The position numbers and the translations under genes were made by a program. A stretch of DNA of 64,000 bases from Owenia fusiformis (taxonomy: Eukaryota): positions 11,780,001 through 11,844,000 of the forward strand of contig CAIIXF020000001.1 in NCBI GenBank assembly GCA_903813345.2. The letters are read 5' to 3'. Shown here piece by piece: positions 267-41,400 of the stretch. The notes beneath the pieces were generated by a model. The model was not told the DNA's origin. It did not search any database and saw nothing but the letters and a program-made list of their open reading frames with translations. Position 1 is the stretch's first letter; each line of letters starts with the position of its first letter.

Positions 267-3200
267 CTACAAAAGAGGTAACAATGAGTCTGCTTTATCA
301 GGATAAAGGTGTAAGGAATATGATTTTGTCAATTAAAACATCAAATCAATGTTTCACATTCAGAAAATGATGGAAAGTTTGCTTGAAATGAAAGGGGTAC
401 ATGGACCAGGTAATAGGTAAAGTATGAACTATGCCTTAGCTCTCTCATTATAACTATCTAATGATTTTCTTATATAAGATCACCAGTTTGTGCACCAAAT
501 GTTGCAAGAAAATACATAGCTGTGGAACCTATAATATGCCAGGAATACTGAAGAAAGTGACAGCTTAGCAATTGGTACTTTGGTATTGTTTTAGGGGCAA
601 TGAAATAATTACTACTCACAAGTAGAAGATGAAGATTTACAGTTAAGCCATTCATGATTGCAACCTCTTCTCTTTTTGCACCTAATATAGGAACATAAAA
701 TTAATTCTAAAATCAACACATGTAGATATAATATTATGAATACATGAATGAATGTACTACATTTAAGATAGTATAAACTATTAGTGAGAAAACACTTTAT
801 AGAGCTGTTATACTTTGACTCTGTGTGGGCTCATCATTTGCCTCCGTGTGAATAATTTGGGGCAAACGGTGGGGCACAGCATGGGATACATGTTGGGCAA
901 AACAAGTACTTTTACAGCAAAATATCATCCATCACACCAAATACAAAGATTAATTGAAAGTGTCTCCTTGAGCAGAGATATTAGCCTATAAATTTGGACT
1001 AAATATCTATAATTTGGTCTACAAATGGTATTGAAGTTATCAAAACTATAAGGCTTTAGCGCTTCTTTATCTCCCTTGAAGTTCATTCTTTGGGATAATC
1101 AAATCAAATCTTTTGACGGGGATTTAATTTGGATTTTTTGATTTTTTGAGTCTGTATGCAGGAATATGTATGTTTTGATGGTCCGAAATGGTAGAACAAG
1201 ATATTGACATCATGTACGAAAAATTTCATCAACATCTGATCACTAATTAAAAAGTTATGACTGTTTGAAAATAATTGGTCAAAATTAGTCAATTTTCAGG
1301 AAATTAATTATAGTACCGATTCTAGCAATGTCGCAAATTTGCTAATTTATGGTCAAAAGAGTTAAAAAATGAATGCCCAAAATTAGCCACATCATGGCAA
1401 ATGGTGAGCCCACATGGCCATGACAGGTTCTTCTACAGGTTTGAAATATTTTTTAAGAGATAAAACAAGATAAAAACAAAGGGTTAAAAGGGACCAATGC
1501 AAAAGTTCAATGTACTAGAGCTAAACTATGTTTTAATAAAGTTTCCAACTTATCAACGACCTTCTCATATCCAACCCCCCCCCCCCCCCACAAGGAATAT
1601 CCCATTGTCAGATTGCTGTAATTAGGGTTACTTTATATTCTTCTATTTTAGGTATTTCTACCAAATCAGAATCAGATCTATTGGGGGTGACAAAATTACA
1701 ACCAACACGTATAACTTTCCAACATTTTCCTTACATCTCAAATACAATATCTGACAAACGGTCCAAAACATTTTATCAGTTGGTGAAGTTATTTAAGTTT
1801 AAAAATGCAAAAATTAGAGAAAATGTTCAACAAATAATAAATATAAAAAAACGAATGAATTATTATAAAATCCTCAAATAAAGTATTCGCCTTGGGTATT
1901 TTTAGAAAATAAACATGACAAGGAATGATATGAGCAACTAACATTCTAAAATCAAAACATTTTTTGTATGGTTGCTTGATCTGATCTGATACTACCTTTA
2001 ACTATTTGAGACAATAAGCCCCCCTCCAAACTAGCAAATATACATAATGTAGTTAATTATCCGACATCAATCTTTTGCATTGAGTCCCATGAAGCATCAC
2101 ATCATTGATGTCAAAGTTATTTATTACTTTAGGAATTTCAAACAATACAGAAAAAAAACAGTAATACAACTTCCTGAAAGCAAAAGTGACTAAAAGCGTT
2201 CTCACAATTATGTTAACATCAGAAAGACAAAGCAATTTTAGTAGTCCGAACAGAAATATGCATTTAGGTCAACAATGATGCTTCTGTTTGGGCTTCTGTT
2301 TGGGCTACTATGATGGTAGATCACGCCTAACCAACGACAACGTACAGTGACAAAATATACCGTCATACACTTTAGATGTACAGTGTCACTATTAACTGAT
2401 TTGAAGCAAAGACAATGATGTAGGTTTGATGTAGGTTTAAAAAAATTATCTAAGGAATACATAAAGGATTTCATGTTTGATTTTGTTTTATCGAACATGA
2501 CTTTTTAAAATCCTGTTTATGATATATCTGGAAAGTGCTCAATAGTTTCAATAGTTCAATCAGATTGAAATAATACTGTAATTGTTCAGTTGAATTTCAA
2601 ATAGATCTGACCCCCCCGCCTGTAAGTGTTAAGAAAAATATGTTGCCTGCATTAGGGTTAACTGTGAATTGAGTAAGTTCAATGCGACAACGTACATTCG
2701 AGTTGACAACATGCACTTATGATTTTTTAAATTATAGCCAAAACATTAATACTTAATATAATAATAATAAATCTTCGACAGACCTTAATTGTTTAAAGAA
2801 ACATATTCTCATAAAAATATTTGACACTCTGAGACGTCAGGGGAGGAAATGATCAAAGGAAATGAGTAATAAAACAATATTTTCCAATCGACCAATTTTA
2901 TGGGTAGATTGACCACGAAAAAAATCGACCACTGTTCGAAAGTCTTTTAACGTTATTAGCAAGTTAAATGTCTTCCTAAACGAATACACATGAAATCAAA
3001 CATGAAATCCTTAATGTATTCCTCAGATAATTTTTATTAGAGGTGGGATAACCAGAGGATATATAGGGGTTATGCACTGGGAGGTTTTGGATACAGGGAA
3101 TATCCCGAGGGATGTACAATATATTTTCCCGAGGGACCAAAGGGACCGAGGGAAGATGTATTGTATATCCCAAGGGACATTCCATGTATCCAAACCGACC

Positions 3201-6200
3201 GTGCATAACTGGTGTATCTCATACTTGAGTGGGTTTAGGGTAGATATAACCTTTTCCACCTTTTTCAAATGACAAGATATTTATATTTAACATTTTCGTA
3301 ATATTCTTTTTGTTCAATACAATGAAACTGTAACACTTAAACTTTAAAAATTTTAATTTTAAAATTAAAAAATTAAAACTTTTTATATTTAAACTTTTTT
3401 AAACTTTTGAAAAATTCCCGGGAGCGGGATGGATATATTATATCTGCCCGCATTTGGCCTGGAGCGGGACATATACAATATATCCTGCCCGCTCCTCAGA
3501 TACGATATATTCCCAGGTGATATCTACCCCAAACCCACTCAAGTATGAGATACACAGTGGTATCACACATTTCAAGCAATCATCTAATCCACAACCATCT
3601 CAGTTTAAATAACAGAACAGTGCATGTGTTATATGCTGATGGGTGAATGGATGAAAACAGTTAGAATACAATCCTAAAACTAAATACTGGGTACAAACTT
3701 GACTGCGTTATCATTCATAAATATATATATAAAAATATCAGAGCATTATTATTACTTCAGAGGTTCCAATATACCATTAGAAAGGAACCAATGTCTCTTT
3801 ATGGATCTGATGGGTTTACCCTTCAAGAGTTTTTCACCATTCTGAACACATTTTACATGATTTGGGCCATTTTTGGACCAAAATTGTCACAAGTGTACCC
3901 TCCTGGAATTTTTCAAAAAGTGAACCCTCCCTTGGCAAATCCTGGCTACGGGCCTGAACATGTATCTCAACCTTGTGATATTAATTATAAATTATGAATA
4001 ATTGCTACCCTGTCAACCCTCACGCATTAGGCGCGATTGTCACGCATTTGCTGGAAAAATAGAAATCACGCATCAATTTAGCATGTATGATCAAATATCA
4101 CGCAAATCACGCATTTTGTTGATCTCTTTAAAAACTGTTTTTAAAAATCGCTTTTTGTGAAATGCCGACACGGTAAAATACCGAACGGCGAAAAAAAGCA
4201 AACGCATTCCGTTCGGTCTTTGTACGCGATTGCCATTTATGTCACGCATTTGGTACAAAATATGTGTATATATCACGCATTTGTTACGAAAATATTTACA
4301 CCTACTCCCCCCCCCGTTAACGGATTTGAACAGCGAGCGTGAGTGAGCTGGAAAAATCTTAGGTGTCCAAAATCCTACCAGTGTTCACTGAAGCTGTCCA
4401 AAGTTTGAAGGAAGGTGTGTTCAACATTTAGAAGTCACTGAGCCATAATTGCAAATATTTTAGGTAGGTGTAAATATTTTCGAAACAAATGTGTGATATA
4501 TACACATATTTTGTTCCAAATGCGTGACATAAACGGCAATCGCATGCAAAGACCGTTTTTTCGCCGTTTGGTTTTTTACCATGTCGGCATTTCACAACAA
4601 ACGATGCGTGACAATCACGCCTAATGCGTGAGGGTTGACAGGGCAGTAATCGGCGCCCATGTCCTTATTAGCGCCCCTCCCAGACTTTTGGAGACCCGAG
4701 GGTGAGAGAATCAACGATCATTTGGGTCAAACGTAAGAAATCCAGTGGGTGATAATAGAATACTTGCTGGTTTTAGTTACTTTTTGCAGTTTTTCAAAAG
4801 GTATTGCAGCTTAAATATATGTCACTCTTTTCACCATAAGATGTATATAATGTTTGTAATTCAAGTCCATATCCATTATGACGACTACCGCTGATTTTTC
4901 CTGTAATCTAGCCATCTCGTTTCGGTATGTGTTGAAAATAGTCAGTCCCGATATGCAATCCAAAACGAGGCTGAGAAGAAATTCAGTAGGTTTATATCAT
5001 TTTCTTATCGACTTGTTGATTAAAATACTGATGTACAATAATAAGTACATGTTTTATATTCCATTGGTGAAGCAAAAAGAGTAGTATAGGTAAGAACCAC
5101 ACAGTTCATGCAAACATGGAATCTCACGAACAAACATTTTTTTAATTTTTTTTCTAAACTGAAATTACCTGGTAACTAATATGGTATCTTTTCACATTTT
5201 TATTTTTTATTCTGCTAGCTGTTTTATGTTATTCTTCTCTCCAGAGCTAGTAATCAAGCCAAAATGTGATACAAGGATGCTGGATGCCAGCAATTATGGT
5301 CAAAGGGTCCAAATCTTTGTTTCTTGGTTATTTTCTTTATGTACCTCAAAACATGTCAAAGAATGGGATATAAAAAGCATCATTCTTTTGACATTCATTC
5401 AACTATATATACATACTAGTTTCAAACATAATTATACAACAGCATAAATGTTGGATGATACATCAAGTTTGGACCCAGTATTATTTTAAGAATTTAAAGC
5501 ATTTCGATTGGTGTTGTATTCTCTTACCCACAACCTTTGCTGACAGTTCATCAACGCATTCATCAGCGAATGCCCAAGGCATTTCCCCTTTAAAATGACC
5601 ATGTAGGCCGCTAGAATGTGCAAGTTTCATGACATAAATAAATAAGCATGCAAAATACCTATATTATAAGTTATTGAATGATTCTAAGTGCAATACAATA
5701 TATATTCTGCTCGAGAAATACCATATTGGAACGAGACGAAGTTGAGTGCCAATACAGAATATCGAGACAGAATATATCCTGTATCACACTTCAAATCATT
5801 CAATAACGTTTTTATCATGTGATCCTCTGTATTGTTACTGAGATTGTTCCCTCCGTACCAATATTTTCTGTATTGCGACGGAGATGATCAATGGGGACAA
5901 TCTCAGTAGCAATACAGATTGGAAGAGCACAAGAACTGACCAATCAGAAGGCTTCATTTTACAGATCATACGATAAAAAGTTATACATGGCAGGTACAAT
6001 GCAAAGATGGCTAGGCGCAATGTAAAATATGGCTGTTAAATAAGAGTCTTAGTTACAAAACAACAAGTAGGAGGGCAAGGCCCCGGGGGTTTCACTCTTA
6101 TATACCTCTTCATACCTATGTGCTGTGCCAAAGACCCCCTTTTTGAGCAATTTTTCCATGTCAATTTCCACTCAATATTGAAAGGGACTAAATTTCCTCA

Positions 6201-9200
6201 ATATGGGTATATTGACTACAAAATCCAGTTCTCCGGTGATTTGCCCCACACCTCACCAACTGATTTAATCAATCTATTACAATTTCTTGTAGAAAAACTG
6301 ATTTTTTACTTAAAAAGGATTCTCTCTTCCACAATTTTTCCATGTTTTTTCCTCTCAGATTGACCAGGTTCCATGGTTTATGCCTTAAGCCAATATTGCC
6401 CATGCTGCACATGACTACAAAACTTAGTTAGAGTGAACCCCCAGGGGCAAGGCAATAACATGCAAAATGTCACAACCTACCATTTGTTCCATATATCAAA
6501 CACTAATGAACACCATCCACAAAAAAATGGAGGCTATAACAGTATGTCAAAAAAAATTAATGATTTATCTTGGAACACAAAGGTGTAATATTTGGCCACA
6601 AGAAAGTTGTTAGCTGCTTAGACTAGCTGGGTGCGCTTAAATATATGTTGCTGCAATGAACCAATATTATTACTAATCTAGGTATATACCCTATGGATTT
6701 TTATTTCCAGTTACTTTGATAAAACCATTAATCAAAGGATTTAAGCATAGGACTCTTGTTTTGACTCCTGATTTTGATGAACGAGTTATTATATATATAT
6801 GTGAGAATCTTTGAATGATTGAGAGACTGCCAGGCCAGTTTATAAGGCTAGGCCTATCATACAAAAAAATTGATTTATATAAATTCTTTAAACACAGTAA
6901 TATTCTTGAAAATGAATTAAAAGTCTACCTAAATATTTTGCTAGCTTTTTACAATATTGACATTTGACTTGCATAAGCATCTGTATTGGCTTTTCATCGT
7001 CAGACTATTTATATCAATTATAATTGTTTTCCCTTATTACAGTTTTCTTCTATTAACCATGTATCTATGAGAAAAAATAGCTTTACTGTATGATTGGCCA
7101 GCGAGTGACATAAAATGTCTATCTATATTAGTGAAGGTTAAAAGAACACTGAAAGCAATTATAAATCATGCATTAAACAATATATCTGAACGCATTTCAA
7201 CTGACCGATTCATGTGATTACTTTAAGCACCCTCCATCCTGACGTGAAAATCTAAGAAGCATTAAAATTGTGCTAACTGCTCTATTATCTTAAACCAAAA
7301 TACTGGGTGTCCACAATATAATTTATACCACAACACTTTTCTTCCCAAGGTCTTACCTACAAGATTGGCCATAGATTGTTCACATAATTCATCACATTCT
7401 TCCCAGGGCAAATCACCAACATACCGTCCAAATGTCCCCCTACATCACAGTGCACAAGATTTATCAATATGAGGTGACCTTGAGATCTTGGGGAGTTAGT
7501 TTTCTTACCCTATCTAAATCAAATAATGATTTCCAGCAACAACTAAACACTGTATGATTTCTTTTTTGACAATGCCAACAAACAGAATACCAAAACTACT
7601 GCCCAAACAAAAGACAAATTATCTCCCCCCCCCCACCCTTATCCCTTATTCAGTCCGAGAACAACCCTGAGCACATAGTGACAAAGGATATCCCAGAACA
7701 GCTTTTCTGCTAAGATTAGACACCCTCTAAATGTAATGACTTGCTCTAACTATCAATCAATGTTATCAATTTTTTTCAGGAAGATTCGTAAAATTCCATT
7801 TTGTATTGTTTAAAAACATCGACTTGTAAAAGGAAATGGCTAGTATTTTAAAATAGAAAAAAGTACATCTTGAACTTGAAAATCTGTTTGATCCAACTTT
7901 GAAATATTGACCTGACCTTTATGCACTATTCAAAGATTTGAATGTGATCCCTCAGCTGACATGGGTGGGGAATTTGATAAAAAAAACTTGTCAGATTTCT
8001 TACCATGGGGCCAAATTTTAATGAATCAATTTCCCAACCCTGGGAGCAATAAATCTTGTCAAATATTCCCCATCATTGGGCTCTGACCCCGAACTATTCA
8101 TTCAGAAATACTAATAAGGGTGTAATACATTGGCATATTGAATGAGTGATTGCAGAGTTGTTCTGATATAAGTTATTAAAACTAAGGATAGGCATGTTTA
8201 GTGAGCGAGTTTGATATAGCAATGGAAGAAAAACACATTTTTCGCAAATTCTTGAATTTGAAATAAGGGTGAAACCAAGCTAGAAAAGCCAAAAAGACAA
8301 AACACTTTTTTATTATGTATGGTATCATTCTAGAATTCTCTTCCCTTTTTACAAATTATTCTCAGCAATAAAAAACAATATGTCACCATCCCACCTAGTT
8401 GCTCAAATCTGAATTTAAACTTAGATTTGTAACCTATAGATGCTTTTGAAAAATAAATTGGTCAATTTAAAGCATGTTGAAAAAATACCTTTTGACCTTT
8501 TTTGACCTTGAGAAGGCCATTGAAGGTCAAATCTCAAATCCCAAATCTGAAGTCAGATTGAACTTCTGAGAACTTGTAGATGATTTTTAAAAAAGGTTTG
8601 GTCAATATGAACCAAGTTGAAAAAAACATTTTTGATCTTTTTTGACCTTGAGAAGGTCATTGAAGGTCAAATCTCAAATCAAAAGTCAGATTTGAACTTC
8701 TGAGAACTTGCAGATGATTTAAAAAAATTGAAGTCAGTCTAAACAGTATTTATTAAGTTATTGGAAGTTGTAAGAATTTGTTACAGATGCCAACCACCAA
8801 CCGCAAACCACCAACCAAAACCCGTCGTCACAAAAAAAGGAGACCATAACAATATGTCACAACTTTTTGGTGGTGACATAAAAATAAGAATAAAGGTTGT
8901 TTAATGTTGTCACGCATATTTAATTCAGTATTTTTCAATGTTACTAACTACTTCTCAATAGAATAAAATTTTTAAACTTAGGCATTATTCCTACAACAGG
9001 AGAAAAAGATTTTATATAAATCTGGCAACTAACTGTAGTTGAAATCTAAATTATGAGGTGTGTATGTGTAAAAACTAAACGTGCATGTATTATTTAGTGT
9101 GTTATCCTTACATTTTGCCCCATTTGTCCAGCTCTCTGTTGACACATTGTTTGGCTTCCTTGGGCTGCAGTCCTAGTGAATTGCCACAGAGATACACACA

Positions 9201-9890
9201 TTCATCATCTCCCCTAATGAGACTTGGATCAACTGGGAAAGAAAATTGAAAAACATAAATATGTAAGTGTCAAGGGAGGAAAGACCATAAAGTATAATAC
9301 AAAAGTTCCATGATATGATTACTATCTGTAAATGTAGTATTATGTATTTTCACTATTGAATAATATAAACCCATATGAATAGCAATACAAACTTACTATA
9401 AAGGTTTTATTTTTAAAATTTCACCTCCTTCCCTACCAAGATTCAGCCCATTACATTTATATTACTAATTTGCATGGCCTAATTCCTTCCTTCTGGGATT
9501 GATTTTCAACCTGATCAGTTTGAAGCGCTCTACTCCAGAGATATTGTTTTTCAAAATCTATCTATCTTAATAATATCTTTTTAAACTAAATACATATAGG
9601 GCCAGGGGTTTCACAAGTAAACATAAGCTTATTATCATATAATCATACAATTACTTACAGCTAGGCAAATCCTCATTTAGAGGATAGATGAACTTGTTAC
9701 GGAAATGTTGCAATGGGTCATCATCATCCATTCTTTTGGCAAATTCTAAGCCAGTGAAGGATAATCCTAACTCATTTGCCCGTGCTTTTAATTTTGTTGA
9801 TGGCAATGTGGAAGTGGCATCATATTTTTGAACTTTGGCAGGTGATGCTTCAATGTCATCACTTAAACTTCTTTTTTCTACAGCAGCCAT
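195..9890 (-). CDS. KYNU: Kynureninase (PLP-dependent L-kynurenine hydrolase), 5' part; gene continues beyond the left edge. Coding exons 9890-9659, 9232-9112, [7439-7357 or 5610-5528], 681-620, 266-195
   Basis: Spliced translation gives ...DPLQHFRNKF...YLCGNSLGLQPK...ELDKWGK-IGLHGHFKGEMPW...[46 protein letters not shown], colinear with eukaryotic kynureninase. All junctions are GT-AG and phase-compatible. Confidence 0.97.
620..681 (-). CDS. KYNU: KYNU coding exon 4 (62 nt)
   Basis: (G)[20 protein letters not shown]; acceptor ttag, donor GTGAGT. Confidence 0.96.
3213..3555. mobile_element. Small palindromic non-autonomous element
   Basis: tgtatctcatacttgagtgggtttagggtagatat at about 3213 is the inverted copy of atatctaccccaaacccactcaagtatgagataca at about 3520-3555. 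Confidence 0.6.
4001..4650. mobile_element. MITE / foldback non-autonomous DNA transposon
   Basis: About 45-bp near-perfect TIRs (ccctgtcaaccctcacgcattaggcg...), plus inner inverted arms at about 4150-4290 and 4475-4600. Confidence 0.8.
5528..5610 (-). CDS. KYNU: KYNU alternative coding exon 3b (83 nt, canonical His variant)
   Basis: (I)GLHGHFKGEMPWAFADECVDELSAKVV(G); acceptor ttctag, donor G|GTAAGA; aligns to human [29 protein letters not shown]. Confidence 0.93.
7357..7439 (-). CDS. KYNU: KYNU alternative coding exon 3a (83 nt, Arg variant)
   Basis: (M)GTFGRYVGDLPWEECDELCEQSMANLV(G); AG acceptor, G|GTAAGA donor, CTAAC branch-like motif about 55 nt upstream; same length and phase (2 to 1) as exon 3b; no stops. 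Confidence 0.85.
8368..8885 (+). mobile_element. Helentron-associated (HINE/pearl-like) non-autonomous element with two internal units of about 133 bp
   Basis: tgtcacca subterminal motif, duplicated ttgaccttgagaagg.cattgaaggtcaaatctcaaatc unit, and 3' stem-loop atatgtcacaactttttggtggtgacata. The same end occurs at 41-80, about 6450-6550 and 30727-30965. Confidence 0.6.
9112..9232 (-). CDS. KYNU: KYNU coding exon 2 (121 nt)
   Basis: (F)DPSLIRGDDECVYLCGNSLGLQPKEAKQCVNRELDKWGK; acceptor ttcccag, donor AT|GTAAGG. Confidence 0.96.
9659..9890 (-). CDS. KYNU: KYNU coding exon 1 (ATG at 9890; acceptor AG at 9940-9939 implies an upstream non-coding exon)
   Basis: ORF MAAVEKR...FAKRMDDDDPLQHFRNKFIYPLNEDLPS; donor T|GTAAGT, phase 1. 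Confidence 0.93.
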
Positions 9891-22297: not shown

Positions 22298-23827
22298 TCA
22301 CTTCGTTAGATCGCCCTCGGCATCAGTTGAACAGACATTGAGTTTGTTTTGGAGTAATTCTACTAATGCCAACGTGGAACAATAATGCAATGCAGCATGA
22401 TTATGTTTATCCTTAATTGTTGTGTCTATCCCGTTCTCAAGCAAAATGCCTACAGTTTCAATATCATTATGTTTTGCAGCTATATGAAGCGCTGTTTGGA
22501 GTTTTGTATTTCTCGCATTAACTCGGGCGTTTTTGGTCAGTAGATACTTTGTCATGCCGATGTTATGATTTTCGACTGCATGGTGTAATGGCGTCATACC
22601 GTTCGAATCTTTAGCATTCATCTTTGCACAAAATTTCACCAAAAGCTCCACGTTTGGAATGTGACCCGCACTTGCAGCACTGTGCAACGGGGTTCTCTCA
22701 TTCGCATCCCTAGCATTCACATTAGCCCCATTAGCAACCAGAGCTTGTAGGATGATTGACCGAGTTCCTCTTGCAGCCACATGTAAAGGAGAAACCCCAC
22801 TTTGTGTAACGTGTCTATTCACGTTTGCACCCTGTCTTATAAGTGTCTCAATTACCTCAATGCATCTGTCAAATAATGTGTCTGCGTTTTCATTTCCTAT
22901 TAACTGTTTTGTAACCCCAATTCTAGATTCAGTCCCTCTTTTAAGTACCCCAACCGGTTCGCTTTCATGACTGTCAAAATTAACTTTGTTAATTCCGTGT
23001 TTGGAAGCACACTCTACTGCTAAAAGAAGTGGGGACCTTCCAGCTTCATCGATAATATCAACAGATCCATTTCGATTCACAAGGAGTTTAATAGTATCTA
23101 AATCACAGCTGGCACTTGCAAAATGCATTGCTGTCCACCCATTATAATCAGATAGATTAATAGCGGCATTCCTTTGTGAAAGTAACTTACAGACATCCGA
23201 ATGGGCATTTTTTGCAGCCAGACAAAGTGGGGAGCGTCCATCTTTATCCTGTAAATTTACTTTAGATCCATTCTCCATCAAATGTTTGGCCACCACACTG
23301 TTACCTTTATGGCAAGCATAATGCAGTGGTATTCTCGATGATGCATCTAAACTATTCACGTCGGCACCAAATGAAGTTAATACAGAACATGTAGATGCTG
23401 ACCCATTTAAACCAACCAAATGTAATGGTGTTCTACCAAGGACGTCGCGCTGGTTCAAATCACCACCATTTTCAGCCAAAATTTCTGCGATTGCATTAAT
23501 TCCGGTAAAGCATGAGATATGTAGTGGCGAAAATCCTTTACAACACCACGAGAAGTCAACATGCCCAGCAAAGTTTGTGCTATTTGTTGGTGACGGGCGT
23601 TTAGGCACAGTGATATTCGGGTCGGCACCATTGCATAGAAAATGATGAACGATCTCTAGATTGCCAGTTGAACATGCTGCTTGCAGGGGATTAACACCAG
23701 CGAGACCAATCGTTTCTGCTAACTGCTTTGTCTGGTGATCATTTCCATCGATTAAGGCGTATATGGCGCAATTGTCATTTTCAACAATATGGGAAATCAA
23801 TCTGTTAGACCAAATATTGTTCATCAT
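22298..23827 (-). CDS. Ankyrin-repeat protein, 509 aa, about 12 repeats, single coding exon
   Basis: Uninterrupted ORF with repeated G-x-(T/S)PLH-x-A...LL-x-x-GA-x-VN motifs; acceptor (ttttag) at 23842-23841 just before the ATG; AATAAA on the minus strand at 22245-22240. Confidence 0.92.
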   Translation of the reverse strand: MMNNIWSNRLISHIVENDNCAIYALIDGNDHQTKQLAETIGLAGVNPLQAACSTGNLEIVHHFLCNGADPNITVPKRPSPTNSTNFAGHVDFSWCCKGFSPLHISCFTGINAIAEILAENGGDLNQRDVLGRTPLHLVGLNGSASTCSVLTSFGADVNSLDASSRIPLHYACHKGNSVVAKHLMENGSKVNLQDKDGRSPLCLAAKNAHSDVCKLLSQRNAAINLSDYNGWTAMHFASASCDLDTIKLLVNRNGSVDIIDEAGRSPLLLAVECASKHGINKVNFDSHESEPVGVLKRGTESRIGVTKQLIGNENADTLFDRCIEVIETLIRQGANVNRHVTQSGVSPLHVAARGTRSIILQALVANGANVNARDANERTPLHSAASAGHIPNVELLVKFCAKMNAKDSNGMTPLHHAVENHNIGMTKYLLTKNARVNARNTKLQTALHIAAKHNDIETVGILLENGIDTTIKDKHNHAALHYCSTLALVELLQNKLNVCSTDAEGDLTK

Positions 23828-26179
23828 CCTTCCTCAATTCCTAAAAGTATAAAAATTACATCATATTACTGGCGGTTACTAATGTTTTAAATGGCGGTAT
23901 TTGTTCATCCATTAAAAAACTATACTTAAAATACCCCGATGATATACTACACTTGAGACAAGGATGGTGTTGACCTTTTATTACCCCAATGTGTCTCAAT
24001 CAATAATAGTTATATGTTATTTGAATAATTTTTACATATGTTGATCATAAAATTGTCTTTCAAGGCATATTTCAAACATGGTTTTGCAGCATGACAAAAA
24101 ATATTTTGTGGATTTCATAGGTGATAATTGAGATGCCATGGGGACTCCCAGGTTTTCAATTTGAAAAGGCAATAAGTACTCTTCTATTAGACGTAATTAG
24201 CGACAAGATGAATAAGACAATTTTATAATAAAGTATTCACCATGTGTTATTAACAAGCATCATCGTTTACTAAAACGTGAGAATACACACCTGGATAGTT
24301 CTAAGCCAAAGAACGAGCTTTTCGAGCTTTAACATTTACAGAAAATAAGTTTGTATAAGTCCATCTATTGTGCAAATGACATAGTTTATGGTTTGAAATT
24401 AACATCGTTTTGCGATGCTACTATGACTTCAATCTGGTATGTAGGTAAGGTTAGGATTACAGTATACTGGCCCAGTCTTAACACACGAGTCCAGGGTCAT
24501 TTTACCTTTCGGGGGAGTCTTCCTATACAAATACGAACCAATAGACTAGTATCCAACACCTCTTCTTCCTCTGTGAAGGAGAATGGATGGAGAGATGCGT
24601 ATATGGACTTAATACACGACTATTTAAATTGTATTTGAACAAGATACATCATAGATTTGAATAACTTTTGTATTGAAAATAACACGTCTGTTTTGACTCA
24701 CCCCTCGGTTGAAAAGGCCTAGCGCAGGGCCTCGAACTAATTCATAAGTATAATATTCCTTGGCACTCAATTAGAACATGTATCGTCTACTTCTGCATAA
24801 GTGTCATTCGTTGATTTCTCAACTTCCTGGAGACCACGAACAATAATACGAATATGGCAATAGACCTAAATACAGGATTTATTGTGTTTGTACAGTACGT
24901 AAATTTATTTTAAGTGAACAATCAATGTCAACAGGTAACGATAAAAGGTTTAGTTCAATCACCCTTTGGCTCGATGAATTATATAAATAAGTTACAAAAT
25001 GGTTTATGAAAAGGAAATGGTAGCAAGAGTTTTGCAATGAAACAAACGATGAAATAAATTGCCAAAATTTTTCTCTACAAAAATAAATTGTAAAGAAAGG
25101 AAAATAGGTAATTTCAATTTTAAAATAATCAGTTTATAATTGGTTACGATGGAGATTACAATCATACTGAATTTCATGAGCATTGTGTCATTTGTTATAT
25201 ATAGAAATATATTCAAGAATCGAATAATGGTAATAAACGTAATTTTGAAAGCACTATTAAAACTTTAAATTTTGAAATCTGTATTTGTAAAAATGTATTT
25301 TTAAAATCTTATGGAACATGATTAAAACATAATTCATTTAAATCATTTATTTATTATTGTATTTCTGTATTGTAACAACATAAATTGAAATGTTTTTCTT
25401 TTTTCAAATAAATATCAACGATGCGTCGGAAAAAGAACTACATACTGTACCTATATTTGAAAAAAATAAAAACAAAGGAGGTTCGTTCCTGAGTTTGTTC
25501 ATTGTAAAATCAAAGACGTGGCATGGATAGTTATCATTGATTAATGTGTTTTTTTACATTCAACATTCCACCAACCATTATGATTACAAGACATTAAAAA
25601 AAGGATTGGAATCAATATGGCGAACTGAATTCAACAATATTTTTCTCTTAAACCAATTATTAAAAACACTCTGTAAAAACATAGTCCTTTAACGATTTAG
25701 TCACTGATTGACAACAATTTAATGCAAAAACATATTTTTTATAAGTGTTTTTGTTAACATTTTTTGATTTTTAATGCAATTGTTTTTTGTTCCTTTCTAT
25801 CAATTCTTGAGAATGAAGTAAAATATCTTTCCGAATCTTGTTGGTTGGAACAAAATAGCATATACAACATTTTCTTAGACCTCTCAATATTATAATTATA
25901 CAAAGGAAGATTTGGTTGATTTAACAAACAAAAACCCCAAAATAGATAAAAATTAAAGTAAACCTTTTATTTCATAAACAAGATACTTTTTTTTAAATCA
26001 ACCAAACTTTCCTTTGTACAATTACAATATTAAGAGACCTAAACACGTTGTGTATACTAGTATGTCAGTTTGTTCCAATGAGGTTCGGATAGTTGTTTCG
26101 TTCCATTCCAAACATATGATACCAAGGGCAAAAGAACTGTCTGGTGTGTTTTCTAAAACGATATAGAGATAAGTATATA

Positions 26180-28601: not shown

Positions 28602-29413
28602 CTAGGCATCCATTATAGACCCATAACTTTGGTGAGAAGGTTTAACAAGAACATATCTAGGACCAGCCAAGTATGCTCTACGGTTGTGCATGCACATCAA
28701 TGTAACAATCGTAAAGAGTATGATCACAATGACTACCAGTGCAATAATTACAATCACCATGTAACCAGGCACATGTTTTTGGTGGTGATGGTGATGGTGT
28801 GGATGAGGTGTGCTGCTATCAAGAGTTGACTGTCCAGTGGAAGCCTCTTCCGGAATATTTACTGCCATTAGGACTTGTCCAAAGGAATGTATATTGTTGG
28901 AGTGAAAAACGGGTAATTTTTCCAATTCCATTGAGTGGTTCAATTTGTTCCTCGAGGTGTCCACCGATCGTTCTTCTGAGGAGAGACTTGATTCAAAATA
29001 CTTGTTATATTCATCATAATCAAGGTGACTAATTGAGCAAATATGAGTAGCTTTGCATGCATTTCGCACACATGGTATACCAGTATCATATGACACTGCA
29101 TTGTATTTATAGTACTTAGAAAAACGCTCACTTTTCCTCTTTTTAAAGCTCTGCAGCAATAAATCTAGAGATTTAGGTGATAAATCAGGAATGTTATAAG
29201 CCTTTGTGGCCTGATATTCCAGGAGCCACTCAGCCGATTTTTTTTCATTGGCTTTGGCGAGGTCCAAGTAATACTGGTGGATGTCAAGGATCTCGCCAGT
29301 GTCCCTGTTATACGTGTAGAGCCTCACGGATGGATTGTTTGGAACAGCCGTTGGAGCATAAGCGCGAAATGAAGTCACTGAAGGACCCAGAAATAGTGAA
29401 CCCTTTGGAATAC
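28602..29413 (-). CDS. SMPDL3: SMPDL3 exon 6 (C-terminal domain, stalk, TM helix, cytosolic tail)
   Basis: GIPKGSLFLGPSVT...NNPSVRLY...CSI...HHHHHH...VIVIIALVVIVIILFTIVTLM...stop at 28604-28602. Confidence 0.93.
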
Positions 29414-32400
29414 CTGAAAGACAAACAAACAACTTTTTCATTTCAAGTCTGACAGAAATATGGTGGCATTGACTTTAAGTGTTTATTGCTAGCTGACAAA
29501 TCTATTTGGTAACATGTGTAAGTTTTAAACAATGTAAAGTGATGTTGAGAGACTAGTGAGGGTGTAAATATAAGCTGCAATAGTAAGTTCTAGCCAAAAT
29601 GGTAATGCATGTAGATCAATCCACACAAAGTCCTATGAAGGACAAAATATGACAGAATGACAGAAATATGGTGGCATTGACTTTTAAGTGTTTATTGCTA
29701 GCTGACAAATCTATTTGGTAACATGTGTAAGTTTTAAACAATGTAAAAAGGATGTTGAGAGACTAGTGAGGGTGTAAATATAAGCTGCAATAGTAAGTTC
29801 TAGCCAAAATGGTAATGCATGTAGATCAATCCACACAAAGTCCTATGAAGGACAAAATATGACAGAATGACAGAAATATGGTGGCATTGACTTTTAAGTG
29901 TTTATTGCTAGCTGACAAATCTATTTGGTAACATGTGTAAGTTTTAAACAATGTAAAGTGATGTTGAGAGACTAGTGAGGGTGTAAATATAAGCTGCAAT
30001 AGTAAGTTCTAGCCAAAATGGTAATGCATGTAGATCAATCCACACAAAGTCCTATGAAGGACAAAATATGACAGAATGACAGAAATATGGTGGCATTGAC
30101 TTTTAAGTGTTTATTGCTAGCTGACAAATCTATTTGGTAACATGTGTAAGTTTTAAACAATGTAAAAAGGATGTTGAGAGACTAGTGAGGGTGTAAATAT
30201 AAGCTGCAATAGTAAGTTCTAGCCAAAATGGTAATGCATGTAGATCAATCCACACAAAGTCCTATGAAGGACAAAATATTTACTCTAGGGGAAGATTCGA
30301 AGACAAATGCACTTTCACTATTTAAAGGCCTCATGCAATTAGTTTGAAAATATTTTTTATCATTCAAATACATCTTTATTTTTCATGAATTCATTCTGGA
30401 CATTTTTGAAATATCGAATTTCCACCATTTCACAAGTGGGGTAATATATTCAGAAATGTACTAGAAACTATAAGTGCTGCTGACCATCATCTCCAAAGTA
30501 TAATCTGAATGAGTCCAAGTGGATATGCCCAAACACCTGTGTGACAATAACATCAAGGTAGTCAGTCACTAAGTTGAGAAACTTTTTGTTGAAGTCAGGA
30601 TAGTAGAAGGCCAAGTCTCTTACTCTCTCCATTGTTCCAGGGGGCACATGACCTATTATCATCACCTGAATAATAAAAGTACATGCATGTAAGATTTTCT
30701 ATCAATGAACCTCAAATAAATAATGAACAAGGCATTAACATGCAAAATGTCACCACCTCCTATTTGTTACAGATGCTGACTGTCGAACGCCAAACACTGA
30801 CCTTTGAATAGCCTTGTCCAAGTTGGAATTTTTTGCTTATCTGTTCTTGAATTATTACAGAAATCGAGATAAGTAAAAGAGACCGACTTGGGCAAGGCTA
30901 ACCTCTGAACACCATCCACAAAACATTTGGAGACTACAGCAATATCTCACCACTTGTGGTGGTAAAACTAATTAAACTTATTAAAAAATGCATCATGGTG
31001 ACCCCAACCCTTGATTATGAGTGCATTCATAATATTGAGTGACTTATAATGCTTTCCAATGATCAATGAGACTTTTAACATTTTCAACATGTTATTTTCT
31101 TACATTTTAATTGAAATAAGCTGTTTAAATGGCTCAGTTTTCTTAATAAACATACCTTCTCACCACTGGATTTAGCTTTTTCTAATGTTTCAGCAAGCCA
31201 CTTGAATTGCCCAACTGGATCATCTATTCCTTCAGACAGTTCGTCTTGATTGTAATAGAGGGCAGTGTTTAAGCCAACAAGTCGAAGAGCTGGGTTGATA
31301 AGACGGCTATAATAACCACCTGAAATAAATAGATAAATAAAACTTTAAAGCCCTCCTCGCATATGAACGAATCCATGAAACGCAGTCTTGTGAATTGGAT
31401 AAATTGTCAATTCTTGTGATTGGGAATGTAAACGTGTGACCCCGAAGCGCATCTTTGCGCATGCTTCTGAAGCCACCTGAAGCTTCCGAAAGGATACTTT
31501 TACTCAAGTCCTATTTGCCAGCACACGCAAATTGACGTTTGGGGGCTTTCATTCATATTTGAGGATTACCACACAGTCACCGAATTCTGGCTATGCCAGT
31601 ACATTGAGTTACATAAAGGCAAATGAATATAAGTAAGTCAAGCTAGTAATCTATCTTTATCTATAATACAACTGTTTTCCAAAGGAAATATGAAGGAATA
31701 AAAATTGTATTGAATCATATTACATGAAAAATCGTATTTTCCCCCGGGAAAAAAATCATATTGGACAGTATTACATGAAAAAATCCTATTGTCCCCGGGA
31801 AAAATCATATTTGAGCGTATTAACCTATTTTTGGTGTCCCGGTTATATATTTTTTTTTTTTTCAAACAATGTGCATTTATTAATATAATGTTTGCATTAT
31901 CCAAATGTAACATTTAAGAGGGATGTTTTATGGAATAAAAAGATTATTTCTGGTCGGGATTAAATTAATATGGGTTTCATTCCTCTGAAAATATGATATT
32001 GACCTTGGCCAATATCATATTGACACTGGGTTGCTGCGCTTCCTCGGTCAATATCATATTACCCTACGGTCAATATCATATTGTCCCTCGGAATAAAACC
32101 CATATTCAATCCCTCCCAGTAAATAACCTATATATCACCATGTAATATTGTGCAGATATTCCCGGTAACACAAATTTTATTTATCTTTTTTTGCCAAATG
32201 TAAGACTTTGCAGGAGATTAAGTTTTGGTGTACTTATATGAACAGAGATATAGGATTTCAATCAAAAAACAAAATGAAACTAGGCTAATCACGTCTGCCT
32301 GTCACTGAAGTAATATTAAAGTCCCCGTCTAAAGTTTAAAAAATATGTTTTGATAAAAAAGTTGTGAGCACTTTATTTCTCAAATTATCTTTCCCGCCAT

Positions 32401-35400: not shown

Positions 35401-38400
35401 GTAATATTGGCACTTAAATGGCCGCCATTTTAAATGAGCTTGTTTGACGGGATAATTACAACCACTGTAGGCTATACTAAGTGAAAAATAATCATTCCAT
35501 GATTGATACTTAACACTTCATACATGTCAAACTTCATTTCACACTTTATAGAATTTAAACACACTAAACTACTTAATTGACAGTGAGTCAAGACTGTTCC
35601 AAAGAAAAAATCTTACAGGGAGGCCTCAATTATTTTATTATCAATTGTTTTTATTTTATGACTAAGATTTTTTTATTTCACCTAGGATTTTTTTCAATCT
35701 AGGTTTCACCCGACACAACCCCAAAGAAATTTGTGTGCTTAGGGTAGTGAAATCACACTTGACGTCGACAGCAACTAAATCATCAATGTAAATTTTCCCA
35801 GTAAGTAAAGACGCAATTTTCTTACAGATTGATCACAAAACAAATTTTTGTGCATGCGTATAAATGCATTTGTGCACTGCTCCCGACCTTTGAACTTAGT
35901 ATACATCGATGACGAAAGTGACATTGCCTTTTCAACATGACAGTCCTTTTTTAATTTTAATGAATTTGGACATTTATGGATCTTAAATCTTCAATAATTT
36001 AAGTTTTGATCAGATTCCCTTTTTTTTCAGAAATAATACAATAAAAATTGTAAGGAAAACATTGGCATGATTTTAAATATTGCTTCCAACACTTTAAACT
36101 CCTTAACTCCTTAATTCATCACGCTTACAAACCTGATTTAAAATCTTTAACCACATCTGTATCATTGAAGGTCTTGCCCCATCCAGACTGCCTTAGGATT
36201 TTGGCATAGAACGGATCCTTCTTCTTCACAGGGAGTTGTCCATATGGAACGCTATCATGATTGCCAAGAACTGGGAAGATATCAGCATTCGGGAAATTGT
36301 ATTGTATAAGATCAGTTATGTTACGAATCATCTTGTTTATCTCAAGTGATGATATTGAACCAACATGGCCAATGTTGTCCCTGAAAACAGATCAATTCAA
36401 ACTATCACATTGTGACTGGAATATGGTGACTATCTTTTATTACTTGTAACTTGTGACCTAAAGATTTGCTCTGTATTACCCTTTTTCAAGTTGCATGTAT
36501 TAACCTTAGTGGGGGGAATAATATAAAGTTATTAGTGAAAGTTATTGATAACTATGTCAAGGATGAATAATGTTACATGTTACATGGAGATGTCTAATCA
36601 GAGTGTAGAACTTAACATATGAGAATGTTGTTGACTTCCAGAAAGAAACCACATAAGACCAATGCATTGAGGAAATCAATCTAAATTTACAATGGAACAA
36701 TAAAATAAAACATATAGCAGAGCGACCAGATATATATAGTACAAGAACATTCTGAATTTTTAAGGATTGTCACAAATGATACATCAGCTTTTGGACTAGA
36801 ACAATTTGGATTAACACTGGATTTTAAAATTTCTTGTTTCCCACACTAGAGACAGCTACCGTGTGACACAAAAAATGACACCCACCCACCTAATGTTTCA
36901 TAAGTTTTTTGTCTGAGGAAATTCTGAATTGTTCTTTCACACATTAAAACTACAATCCATTTGGCAACACATCAAGAACTTTCAGATGACTAGTTCACCT
37001 AGATGCACATTTATGAGCGTTACAAAAGGTGTCATTCTATTCCTTTGCTGACACAACTGGATCTTACACAAAAAATGACACCAACCTTTTTGTAACATAA
37101 TTTTGGAAATAAGTTATAATGATTTTATCAATGACAACTACATCATTTTGTGTTAAATTGAATGGACTTCAATTCCCTGAAAGTACAAACTAAAATCAAT
37201 AGTATTTACAAAGTTATGTTACAAAAGCTGGGTGGCATTTTTTGTGTAGAATCCATGTGTGTCTGCAAAGGAATGGATGATATTTAGAGCAAATGTTGTT
37301 ACGCTCATAAATTTGATCCACTTGACCTACACACCTGAAATTTCTTGAGGTGCTTTCGCATTATGTCTACCTCAAGTGTGCCAAAGGACAAGTCTATATG
37401 TTAATTCACGAACAAGTTATGCAACATATTCGAACACAGTATTTTTACATGACAGCAGTGCATGAAATAATCAATAACGCATTTGTTGTGTTTGGTTGTT
37501 AACATGATGAGATTGAAATTGATGCTTTGCCAATACTTGATCCTTGCAAAACGATTCATTGAAAATATGTTCTTTTGGTGATTTTGTATCTTTTTAAGTG
37601 ATTTTGTAGAAAATATTTTATAATTTGTGAAAAGAATCTAAGCCCGAGAGCCTTGTTTCCTAAACTTTGCATTCCCGCTGTGCAGTCATGCAAAGATTTG
37701 GAATCAACACTTAGTCCAGGGCTTAAATCCTTAAATAAGCATGGACTGTAAGTTAGCTGTTTTCAATATCTTCCAATGTATGTCAAATTAAGAACAATTT
37801 CTTGAATTTAACCCTTACAGCCTTAAAAGACCAAATATGTCTTTCAGAAAAAAAATAAAAATAAAATCAAAATTTTGACTTTGATTATCGTTTTTAGAAG
37901 TGTTTGGAAGAATTTTATGCTTATTCTTAGGTAAGCATTCAAAATTAGGAGAGATCCTAACCACAAGAGAAATTTCATTGAAGCAAGAAATACATTCAAA
38001 GAGATGGCTGAAAAAGCCCAATTAGATTACTGGAACAACCTGTTCAAAGACCTTAACACCCAGGATACTAATGATATATGGAAGGTTGTAAAAAAACACT
38101 CTACATACAATCAAGACAAAAGTATAGTGCAACCCATAATAAAAAATGACAAATCCATTGCTTTCTCTGATGAAGATATTACACAGGAAATGCTAAAACA
38201 ATATGGTAAAGAATGCCTTGAAATCCAAAACAAACTACCTAATTGGTACAATGAAGTACAAGATACTGTACACAAATTCATAGAAAAAGAAAAAGCCAGA
38301 ATTCAAAATGATAAATATGATTGCAATCAAGGAGACCTCAACATCCATGAGGTAAAAAAAGCTATATAAGAGGCTAAAAGTCTATCTGCCCCAAGCCCAA

Positions 38401-41400
38401 GAGAAAACATACAGTACATATTAGTCCAAAAAGGAGGAGAAAGGGAAGCTAAAGCGCTTCTCTTACTATTTCAAAAGAGTTGGAAAATTGCGTCGCTCCC
38501 CAGAGAGTACTGCATTGACCCCAAGGAAATGATTCCTAAACCCAACAAGCCATCCTATAATGTAACTCCCTCATACCGGCCCATTACCTTAGAATAAGTA
38601 TTAGGAAACTTACTAGAAAAGGTCCAGGCAAATAGATCCAGCTGGGTAGCGATGCAATTAGATATCATTTCACCTTTCCAAGAAGCATATCTCGAACAAC
38701 AGAACTGCTCACAGATACTGATGTAAGACACAGTTAGAGACCAAAAGTAAGCCGCGGATCGACTTACTAATCGTAATTCGATTTCAAAGGTCACTATTGA
38801 TGAGCTGTTCACTTCTCCGTTTGAGAGCCATAAGTTTCAAAATCTAACATGGCTCTCGAAGTGAGTAAGTCAAAGGCAGACTTCTGTGTTATATTACTGA
38901 ATACATTCTACACAGGAGCTATTCAATAAAATGTAACAAGTTCACAACACCCCTAAAGACCTCTACTGTTGGTATACCTCAGGGAGCTGTGATCAGCCCG
39001 CAGCTCTGTAACTCATATACGGCAGATGCTCTATGTGGTATCCAATGTCTACATGGAGAATATGCAGATGACATCATAATATGGACCTCAAATGAATCAT
39101 TGGAAGAGGCCATAAAAACTGTACAAAATGATATTATATCAATACAAGATTGGTGTTCTAAATGGAATATGAGTTTCACCAACAGTAAAAAAAAAACCCT
39201 GATATTTTCACCTTCAAAAAATGACAACAACTTACCAAAAGCTATAAAGGTTGAAACAGGTGAAATTGAGGTAGTAAAAACAACCAAGATGTTAGGCGTA
39301 ATGTTAGATGACAAACTAGAATTTAATGAACATATAGAGGATAGGACCAAAAAGGGATTTGCATCCCTAAAAAGAATATCAGATTTCACAAGCAATAATA
39401 AAGGATGCACTCAATCTGCTTTTGTATATCTCTATGAGACACTTGTACTACCCAATGTTGACTATGGCAGTATGGTTGCTCTTTTTTAGCCACAGTACAT
39501 AGAGCTGCAGTGGAAAAGTACCAACAGGTCCACAGACTTGCACTATTGAAAGCATTGGGCTGCTACAAAACAAGCACTGATGCATTGGATGTAATCATAA
39601 ACACCCAGCCTATTAGTGTGTGCCAAATTGCTTTCTAAGTGGCTTAGTTAGGCTAAACCTATGTTGTGGTAGCTTACTATGAATTGACCCATAGTCATTT
39701 TAGATTGATCTATTATCTATTCATCTTTACTTGTCTGCAGTCAAAATAGTGACACGAAAGGGCTAAACGGCTTGCACCAAGGTGCGACTGCCAAAAAGAT
39801 GAGTTTGAAAAATATACATTTTTTTAAATAATACTTGTAAGTATACAAAATAAGATGCAAATTTAATATTGATGTGTAATGATAGTCCATTCGGGTGTGG
39901 TAATTTTATGAAAAACAATTATGGTAAAAAATTGGATATTTATGACCTTAAAATGCGTTTTCAATTAAAAAGTTACTGTTGTCAAGGATATTATTCCTAT
40001 TTTATATAGTCAGTGTTTTTTAAATATACCAATAACCATTTCATTAGTTTTTGACAAAGTAAATAATTATAGGGCTCACACAAGGATCAACTTTGTTCAT
40101 AGCATTTTCATATTAAGTGATGTTTTGAAAAAATACGAAGGTAAACTCAATTTTATTTTTTATTTGTTGAAGAAAAAACAATTATATGTTTGTTTTCTTG
40201 TTTCGACTGAAAAATCTCAATTCATCGCCCTTGCTTCGCAAGCAGGAGAGTCTACACCAGTACGAAAAAGTCTTCAAAAAGTTGATCCTTGTGTGAGCCC
40301 TACAATTATTTACTTTGTCAAAAACTTATATAATGGTTATTCGGATATATAAAAATCATTTAATAGGTAAAACAGGAATAGTATCATTGACTTTTGATTT
40401 TGAATAAAAAAGTATTACGAGCATATAGTGCATCACTTAGTTTATAGCTTGCAGACAGTGATCTAAGAGACATCATCTTGTAGTAATTGGTGTGACAGTG
40501 ATGAGACGGGAATTGATTTTATTAATGTAAGTTTTGACAATCCTAGTATTGATGGTTTATCTTACGGACGTCATATTAAAAGATACCAATTTGCATTACA
40601 TCAACATCAAAGAAGTTTGATTTGTTCACAGATACGTGTCAGAGTGATACCTGTAGCAGTTGCACTAGATTGATATACAACAAGATATGTGTGAGCATTC
40701 ATTGCAACATTTACTTAAGAGTTATAATTTTACTAAATCTGATGGAAGATTAGATAGTTTAAGTCTATCTCTTTTGGTTTATTCAATTTGAATATTACTT
40801 TTGCAATAAAGATACTTTACTTTTGAAACATTAGCAGCAATTTCATTTCAAAAAGATCAGTTTTCAACTTCGTATATGTTTTGTTCATAAAATGTGTATT
40901 CAACATAGGTCAAAAGTCAGGGTAATTTCAAGTTTAAAATATCAATATCTAGGATAGTTGGCATTTTAAGACATTTTGCCGATGGTGTGACCCTTCACAG
41001 CCGATGATTATGTGACCTGAGGTAAAGATCAACTGAATGGGTGTAGGTAATTTCACGGTCAATATCTAGCAATTTGGTGTTTTAAGGCAATTGAGAACAA
41101 TTCTGACCCTTGACAACCGATTATTAGGTGACCTGTTGTCAGGGTCAAGGTCTATAGGTCAAGATCATTTCAAGGTCATCAATATCTAAATATTTGGCGT
41201 TTTTGGGCTGAGGTTACCCTTTGTGAATCATGAATGTGTGACCTGAGGTCAAGGTTATTTCAAGATCAAATATCAGTATCTAAGTATTTGGTGTATTTAA
41301 GGCCCTGGTATCTGCTGTGGCCCCTAGCGACTCATGATAGGGTGACTTCCAAGGTCAATATCTAGCAATTTGGAGTTTAAAGGCAATTGAGAACAATTGT

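Follow-up and report, generated by a model that had tools for sequence, protein, structure and literature searches.

Two homologous copies of the substrate-loop exon of kynureninase in Owenia fusiformis: a candidate mutually exclusive pair with His or Arg at residue 102

Introduction

The closest described parallel to the locus studied here is COQ-2, where, in helminths, annelids and molluscs that make rhodoquinone, the choice between exons 6a and 6e sets whether the enzyme uses 4-hydroxybenzoate or 3-hydroxyanthranilate, according to the portions available to us of two papers (PMC7434440, PMC8659336). The same portions report no splicing of kynureninase and describe no helminth-specific residues in KYNU-1's active site (PMC8659336). 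Here we describe a kynureninase gene on the minus strand of a 64,000-nucleotide stretch of the genome of Owenia fusiformis (assembly GCA_903813345.2, contig CAIIXF020000001.1, forward-strand positions 11,780,001 to 11,844,000; hereafter the window, with position 1 as its first letter). The gene holds two homologous exons, 3a and 3b, which would encode alternative versions of the substrate-recognition loop. Mutually exclusive exons that arose by tandem duplication and reshape the pocket of an enzyme form a class already known, and the kynureninase pair is, judged by sequence, a candidate new case of it. Full-text literature searches found no description of alternative or duplicated exons in kynureninase, in line with a preliminary description of the locus, which knew of none, and literature that mentions kynureninase together with mutually exclusive exons was found only on COQ-2.

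Among the features that decide which kynurenine a kynureninase will cleave, residue 102 and the loop that begins with it (human numbering throughout) have the best documentation. In the part of the source available to us, H102 with N333 is given as the hallmark of a preference for 3-hydroxykynurenine and W102 with T333 as that of the bacterial preference for kynurenine; the loop 102-112 is described as a substrate-recognition element in which about one third of the mutations in laboratory-evolved variants fall; and in engineered human enzymes a change of position 102 alone cut activity strongly (PMC11329768). We lean towards the view that exons 3a and 3b are a genuine and old mutually exclusive pair that swaps this specificity loop, with the His form as the main product; the Arg form, its pocket altered, would be made in minor amounts or conditionally.

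Results

A kynureninase gene with two versions of exon 3

The minus strand of the window carries the first five coding exons of the gene, which then continues past the window start. Exon 1 (9659-9890, 232 nt) opens with an ATG at 9890-9888 and ends in phase 1 at a GTAAGT donor, and exon 2 (9112-9232, 121 nt), which reads ...YLCGNSLGLQPK...ELDKWGK, ends two bases into a codon. Exon 4 (620-681, 62 nt), which reads ...AKREEVAIMNGLTVNLHLLL, starts in phase 1 and is followed by a GTGAGT donor, and exon 5 (195-266, 72 nt) is the last exon inside the window. The lysine that binds pyridoxal phosphate (PLP), the catalytic core and position 333 belong to exons beyond the window start, and all readings below cover the N-terminal part only.

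By family homology over this available part, the gene is a kynureninase. A protein search with the stop-to-stop open reading frame (ORF) around exon 2 returned 141 matches at E ≤ 0.01 among 185 candidates, and every match named by its source is called kynureninase or a synonym. The N-terminus spliced by script is 52-56% identical to proteins of Lingula, Ptychodera and Saccoglossus, with E-values down to 1e-56 (approximately 54% for both Lingula anatina P0002 and Ptychodera flava P0121), and the full-length relatives carry the Pfam families PF22580 and PF00266 (kynureninase, PLP-dependent hydrolase). The position of the exon-2 intron recurs in the read-through ORFs P0001, P0011 and P0015 and in the metagenome locus L001. 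An exon-1 query against longer proteins gave 44 candidates, none of them at E ≤ 0.001.

Between exons 2 and 4 lie the two copies of exon 3, both on the minus strand and both 83 nt long: 3a (7357-7439), the divergent copy, with Arg102, Tyr103 and Glu110, and 3b (5528-5610), the canonical copy, with His102, Phe103 and Ala110. Each is preceded by AG, ends in a G directly before the donor GTAAGA and runs from phase 2 to phase 1, and each is free of stops only in the frame handed on by exon 2, in which 3a is translated as GTFGRYVGDLPWEECDELCEQSMANLV and 3b as GLHGHFKGEMPWAFADECVDELSAKVV. The splice sites of both copies were recognized by sequence from these signals. Aligned without gaps, the copies share 44 of 83 bases and 9 of 27 residues.

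Splicing in silico defined how the two exons can be combined. With either 3a or 3b alone the frame stays open through exon 5, whereas inclusion of both leads to a stop in exon 4 and omission of both to a stop in exon 5. This frame rule, and presumably nonsense-mediated decay along with it, would make 3a and 3b exclusive. Steric hindrance was considered as the mechanism of exclusion and ruled out, because the intron that separates 3a from 3b is 1,746 nt long. In their homology, equal length, phase, splice sites and frame incompatibility, 3a and 3b satisfy the sequence criteria of tandem-duplicated mutually exclusive exons. A preliminary description of the locus had reported two homologous, stop-free 83-nt exons of phase 2 to 1 between AG and GTAAGA, with junctions at 9112, 7439, 7357, 5610, 5528 and 681, and had argued that both or neither would shift the frame; our analysis reproduced the lengths, the frames and every coordinate, and located the resulting stops in exons 4 and 5.

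Residues of the substrate loop in exons 3a and 3b

Residue numbers were transferred from the human enzyme through the Lingula protein P0002, which aligns without gaps to 3e9k_A and places His102 at the GH of the segment and Ile110 directly after PW. In the 3b form, GH falls at positions 101-102 and PW at 108-109. In the ungapped register 3b reads G-L-H-G-H...P-W-A and 3a reads G-T-F-G-R...P-W-E, the 3a loop being GRYVGDLPWEE. Exon 3a retains the strongly conserved scaffold residues G, G, G, PW, DE, A and VG, and it differs at the pocket positions, with His102 changed to Arg, Phe/Glu103 to Tyr and Ile/Ala110 to Glu. Exon 3a, in short, conserves the scaffold and changes the predicted pocket. His102, one criterion of a 3-hydroxykynurenine-preferring (eukaryotic) kynureninase, is found in 3b and replaced by Arg in 3a. 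Given the published mapping of the loop to residues 102-112, the alternative exon would encode exactly the specificity loop. The preliminary description had placed His in 3b and Arg in 3a at human position 102 and acidic residues after PW in 3a; the alignment of P0002 with 3e9k_A bears out the former, and the first of the latter is Glu110. Its further statement that the segment holds the His102 that helps to set substrate preference agrees with the available part of the source (PMC11329768).

We then compared these residues with two samples of the family, which have the Lingula sequence in common. The first consists of 90 gapless segments, taken from the 109 of 120 listed exon-2 ORF matches that cover the region; at column 102, 81 of the 90 have His, 9 have Trp and none has Arg. 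The second comes from a HMMER scan in which the Lingula protein was run against 1.84 billion cluster representatives, and which gave 5,102 matches at E ≤ 0.001, the best 150 of which were examined. Among the 139 of these 150 that cover the segment, column 102 holds His in 121, Tyr in 6, Phe in 4, a gap in 3 and Gln, Ile, Trp, Lys and Leu in one each, again with no Arg. Glu at column 110 occurs once in each sample (1/90 and 1/139), and Tyr at column 103 in none of the 90 and one of the 139.

A separate observation concerns the second residue of exon 3, in the column of human residue 99, which is Val in all 90 gapless segments, Thr in 3a and Leu in 3b.

Exon 3a compared with chance and with neutral decay

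When each exon peptide was searched by tblastn against the whole window, only the other exon was matched (E 8.9e-4), and the next hit stood at E 0.74 or worse. On a profile built from the 90 gapless family segments, 3a scores 30.2 bits and 3b 47.7 bits, while the best of 20,790 other stop-free windows of 29 codons in the 64 kb reaches 6.2 bits. A search of solved structures with the 27-residue exon peptides returned none at E ≤ 10.

Neutral divergence was simulated by putting 39 random substitutions, the number of differences observed over the 83 positions, into 20,000 copies of 3b. None of the copies reached 30.2 bits (the maximum was 19.0), none retained all nine shared conserved residues, and 24% remained stop-free. 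In addition, the codons differ at six of the nine residues common to 3a and 3b, no indel separates the two exons, and AG and GTAAGA are intact in both. These comparisons support the conclusion that 3a bears the pattern left by purifying selection on a coding exon, a pattern with which a recent loss of use is also compatible; the intactness of 3a means that any loss of its use would be recent. The long-term selection on both exons that the preliminary description had proposed is likewise backed by the simulation and by the synonymous codon differences.

The split between the copies looks old or fast-evolving, because, among 175 family segments that come from other organisms, 42 stand closer to 3a than 3b does. 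Exon 3b shares up to 17 of its 27 residues with segments of other animals, and the motifs GDLPW and CDE are kept in 3a as in Lingula and altered in 3b.

Candidate pairing elements in the introns

The 64 kb contain three occurrences of the 10-mer AATACTGGGT or its complement, each within the kynureninase gene, where 0.18 would be expected, and 0 of 100 shuffles reach three. Three candidate pairing elements were delimited on the minus strand. S1 (7277-7339) begins 18 nt and ends 80 nt after the 3a donor; D (5445-5502) occupies the nearly equal distance of 26-83 nt after the 3b donor; and S2 (3664-3718) lies far inside the intron that leads from 3b to exon 4, approximately 1.8 kb downstream of D, where it is spanned by a DNA contig at single-copy depth. 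D is complementary to both S1 and S2. The predicted duplexes have energies of -42.0 kcal/mol for S1:D and -39.9 kcal/mol for D:S2, the latter with a 20-nt core that is 95% complementary, and in motif-centred windows 0.13% of random intron pairs are as stable. Pairing of S1 with D would loop out 3b, and pairing of D with S2 would release 3b and bring it nearer to exon 4. S1, D and S2 might thus help exon choice by looping, which we regard as a weak lead. Rfam gave no match in the window.

The introns of the gene also contain highly repeated, transcribed elements. In the stretches 2777-4164, 5553-6593 and 8329-9022 the word depth in DNA contigs is in the thousands to tens of thousands, against approximately 10-17 for single-copy sequence, and RNA depth is in the tens on both strands. 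Several of the repeated intron elements have long inverted repeats, for example 4214-4305 with 4464-4555 (93% complementary).

Observations that weigh against use of both exons

A number of observations count against the reading of 3a and 3b as a working pair, and the first group concerns other organisms. Among the proteins searched, 3a-like segments turned up neither with the 3a ORF as query nor in the 90 and 139 family segments. The stop-to-stop ORF around 3a gave four candidates among longer proteins, none at E ≤ 10, in a search in which isoforms collapse in 90% clusters and exact 5-residue words are needed. When ten relatives were looked up in their clusters, no pair of exon-3 isoforms came to light (P0010 and P0278 are distinguished by one residue elsewhere), and the search for relatives scarcely reached close relatives of the source animal. 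A pattern scan of metagenome contigs gave two loci, L001 and L002. In L001 (1-1846, minus strand of the locus) we recognized a distant animal kynureninase fragment with exons 1 and 2 and the start of exon 3, and with intron positions that match those of the window. A single His-type exon 3 follows its exon-2 intron of approximately 670 nt with no second copy between, and the contig ends inside exon 3. This single His-type exon indicates that, as far as the fragment reads, the 3a exon is not universal in animals. The second locus, L002, was rejected as a chance match.

The second group concerns RNA. From each of three raw RNA-seq runs that carry the same species label (X13, X14 and X15), 6-12% was sampled, alongside one DNA-like run; depth was taken as the mean per 347-base bin, and junctions were listed from three reads upward. 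In the order X13, X14 and X15, the depth is 0.66, 0.52 and 0.34 in the bin of exon 2 (9023-9369), 0, 0.35 and 0.25 in that of exon 4 (348-694), and 0.25, 0.24 and 0 in the bin that contains 25 nt of exon 3b (5206-5552). The first mates lie on the plus strand, which is what a standard stranded library would give for a minus-strand gene. The kynureninase gene is transcribed from the minus strand at a low level. In the bin of exon 3a (7288-7634) the depth is 0.1, 0 and 0.1, which corresponds to at most approximately 35 bases per run, whereas the other exons of the gene have approximately 1-2x cover. At the three-read threshold no junction of the kynureninase gene was listed in these samples, and no read or transcript with 3a spliced in was found at an exon depth of approximately 2 or less. 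In these three samples 3a is at best a minor form.

The remaining points come from the sequence itself. The acceptor of 3a has a poor pyrimidine tract, and dN/dS in the pairwise comparison of the two copies is high (0.70/0.90), a value to be expected from divergence and, over 27 codons, uninformative on constraint. When the pairing elements are assessed with fixed 100-nt flanks, 2.4% of random intron pairs are as stable, which is not significant after counting 15 flank pairs. Arg102 with Glu110 could simply inactivate the pocket, and the window does not extend to Asn333 and the remainder of the enzyme.

Other features of the window

Elsewhere on the minus strand, an uninterrupted open frame of 511 codons at 22298-23833 consists almost entirely of ankyrin repeats (Pfam Ank_2, E 5e-85). 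An exon at 28602-29474 (minus strand) belongs to an acid-sphingomyelinase-like phosphodiesterase; it matches the C-terminal domain of ASMase (E 8e-38), beyond which come a His-rich stretch and a segment that is membrane-like, and it points to an Atlas cluster that is mostly from Mollusca. A further exon of the phosphodiesterase lies at 46463-46759 (minus strand), with a metallophosphoesterase-like start judged by eye. On the plus strand, 37935-39489 and 43945-44562 are fragments of a non-LTR (long terminal repeat) retrotransposon (RVT_1, E 4e-12; RNase H, E 4e-9), and the Atlas clusters nearest to the reverse transcriptase fragment are jockey-like and mostly from Arthropoda. Finally, an open frame at 55044-55517 (minus strand) with a signal-peptide-like start, dibasic sites, a cysteine-rich tail and no Pfam match may belong, as one of the exons, to the precursor of a small secreted peptide.

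Discussion

The explanation that we favour begins with an old tandem duplication of kynureninase exon 3, the exon of the active-site loop from human His102 to approximately residue 125, which would have produced the pair. Each transcript would take either 3a or 3b, and products with both exons or with neither would be cleared by nonsense-mediated decay. The 3b isoform would be an ordinary 3-hydroxykynurenine hydrolase and is seemingly the dominant form in the three RNA samples. The 3a isoform would be a minor or condition-specific enzyme, in which a remodelled and charged ring pocket may lead to a different substrate preference or activity. A natural gene with two versions of the loop would be a ready-made experiment on how specificity is set, and would show that splicing, in place of separate genes, can direct flux through the kynurenine pathway; a new substrate or a regulatory subunit might come to light through the Arg isoform.

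The most serious competitor, which we consider a real possibility though a clearly less probable one, is that 3a is a former alternative exon that is now disused, or is splicing noise, and has not yet decayed, so that the 3b form is the single enzyme. The bin of 3a is almost without RNA cover beside the approximately 1-2x of the other exons, no 3a-like protein was found in the proteins searched, the pyrimidine tract at the 3a acceptor is weak, and Arg102, found in 0 of 229 sampled segments, could be disabling. This explanation sits poorly with the preservation of frame, length, splice sites and nine scaffold residues at 47% nucleotide divergence, a state that none of the 20,000 simulated copies came near. 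The RNA sample, moreover, covers only 6-12% of three runs of unspecified tissue, which limits how far the low cover of 3a can be read as disuse. If 3a is indeed unused, it is an ordinary relic of exon duplication.

Kynureninase is a dimer, and we give a small chance to the idea that the 3a isoform is used but is catalytically poor, or is an inactive subunit that modulates the enzyme, for example in mixed dimers. The charged residues of 3a at the two pocket positions are absent or nearly so from the family (Arg102 in 0/90 and in 0/139 of those among the best 150; Glu110 in one of each), and in the available part of the source a change of position 102 alone strongly lowered the activity of the engineered human enzyme (PMC11329768). 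The conserved scaffold residues, on the other hand, are what would be expected of a folded enzyme with a working loop. That 3a resembles exon 3 as a mere chance ORF or through an annotation artefact, with its short length of 27 codons as the sole point in favour, is next to inconceivable given 30.2 bits against at most 6.2 elsewhere and a correct position, strand, phase, length and splice sites.

A bolder form of the exon-pair explanation would have one gene make two kynureninases, with the Arg102/Glu110 isoform acting on another ring substrate or switched on by conditions, and with splicing, possibly through the choice between S1:D and D:S2, routing the breakdown of tryptophan. We regard this full version, in which the products so routed would be NAD, pigment precursors or 3-hydroxyanthranilate for rhodoquinone, as unlikely.

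Compared with the canonical eukaryotic kynureninase (human 3e9k and 2hzp, with His102 and Asn333), the N-terminal 190 residues of the 3b form are those of an ordinary animal kynureninase, whereas the 3a form with Arg102 is absent from the sampled natural sequences. The bacterial enzyme (1qz9, W102/T333) resembles the present case in a natural change at residue 102 that goes with a different substrate preference; there, however, the change lies between the genes of different species rather than in two exons of one gene, and Trp is hydrophobic whereas Arg is charged. As for the choice of exon, in arthropod clusters of mutually exclusive exons it is controlled by competing RNA pairing between a docking site and selector sequences. 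D is similarly complementary to both S1 and S2, so that one pairing could form at a time, but the significance is marginal here and the layout is unlike the classic arrangement with upstream selectors.

The comparison with COQ-2, within the parts of its description available to us, is the closest. The splicing, the switch and the phenotype of COQ-2 have been shown by experiment across phyla, whereas the kynureninase pair is described here from its DNA. In both genes, two homologous internal exons of equal length, of which one or the other is spliced in COQ-2 and would be here, remodel the substrate pocket of a metabolic enzyme, here by prediction (PMC7434440). In both, one form is like the exon found in every other species, and its alternative is restricted to a lineage, as 3a appears to be (PMC7434440). 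If the source animal belongs to a rhodoquinone-making lineage, this parallel would make the locus relevant to anaerobic metabolism. The two enzymes also meet in one pathway, since COQ-2e is proposed to use 3-hydroxyanthranilate, the product of kynureninase (PMC7434440), and on the bolder form of the explanation the exon pair described here would add a second switch by splicing to the pathway of COQ-2 6a/6e.

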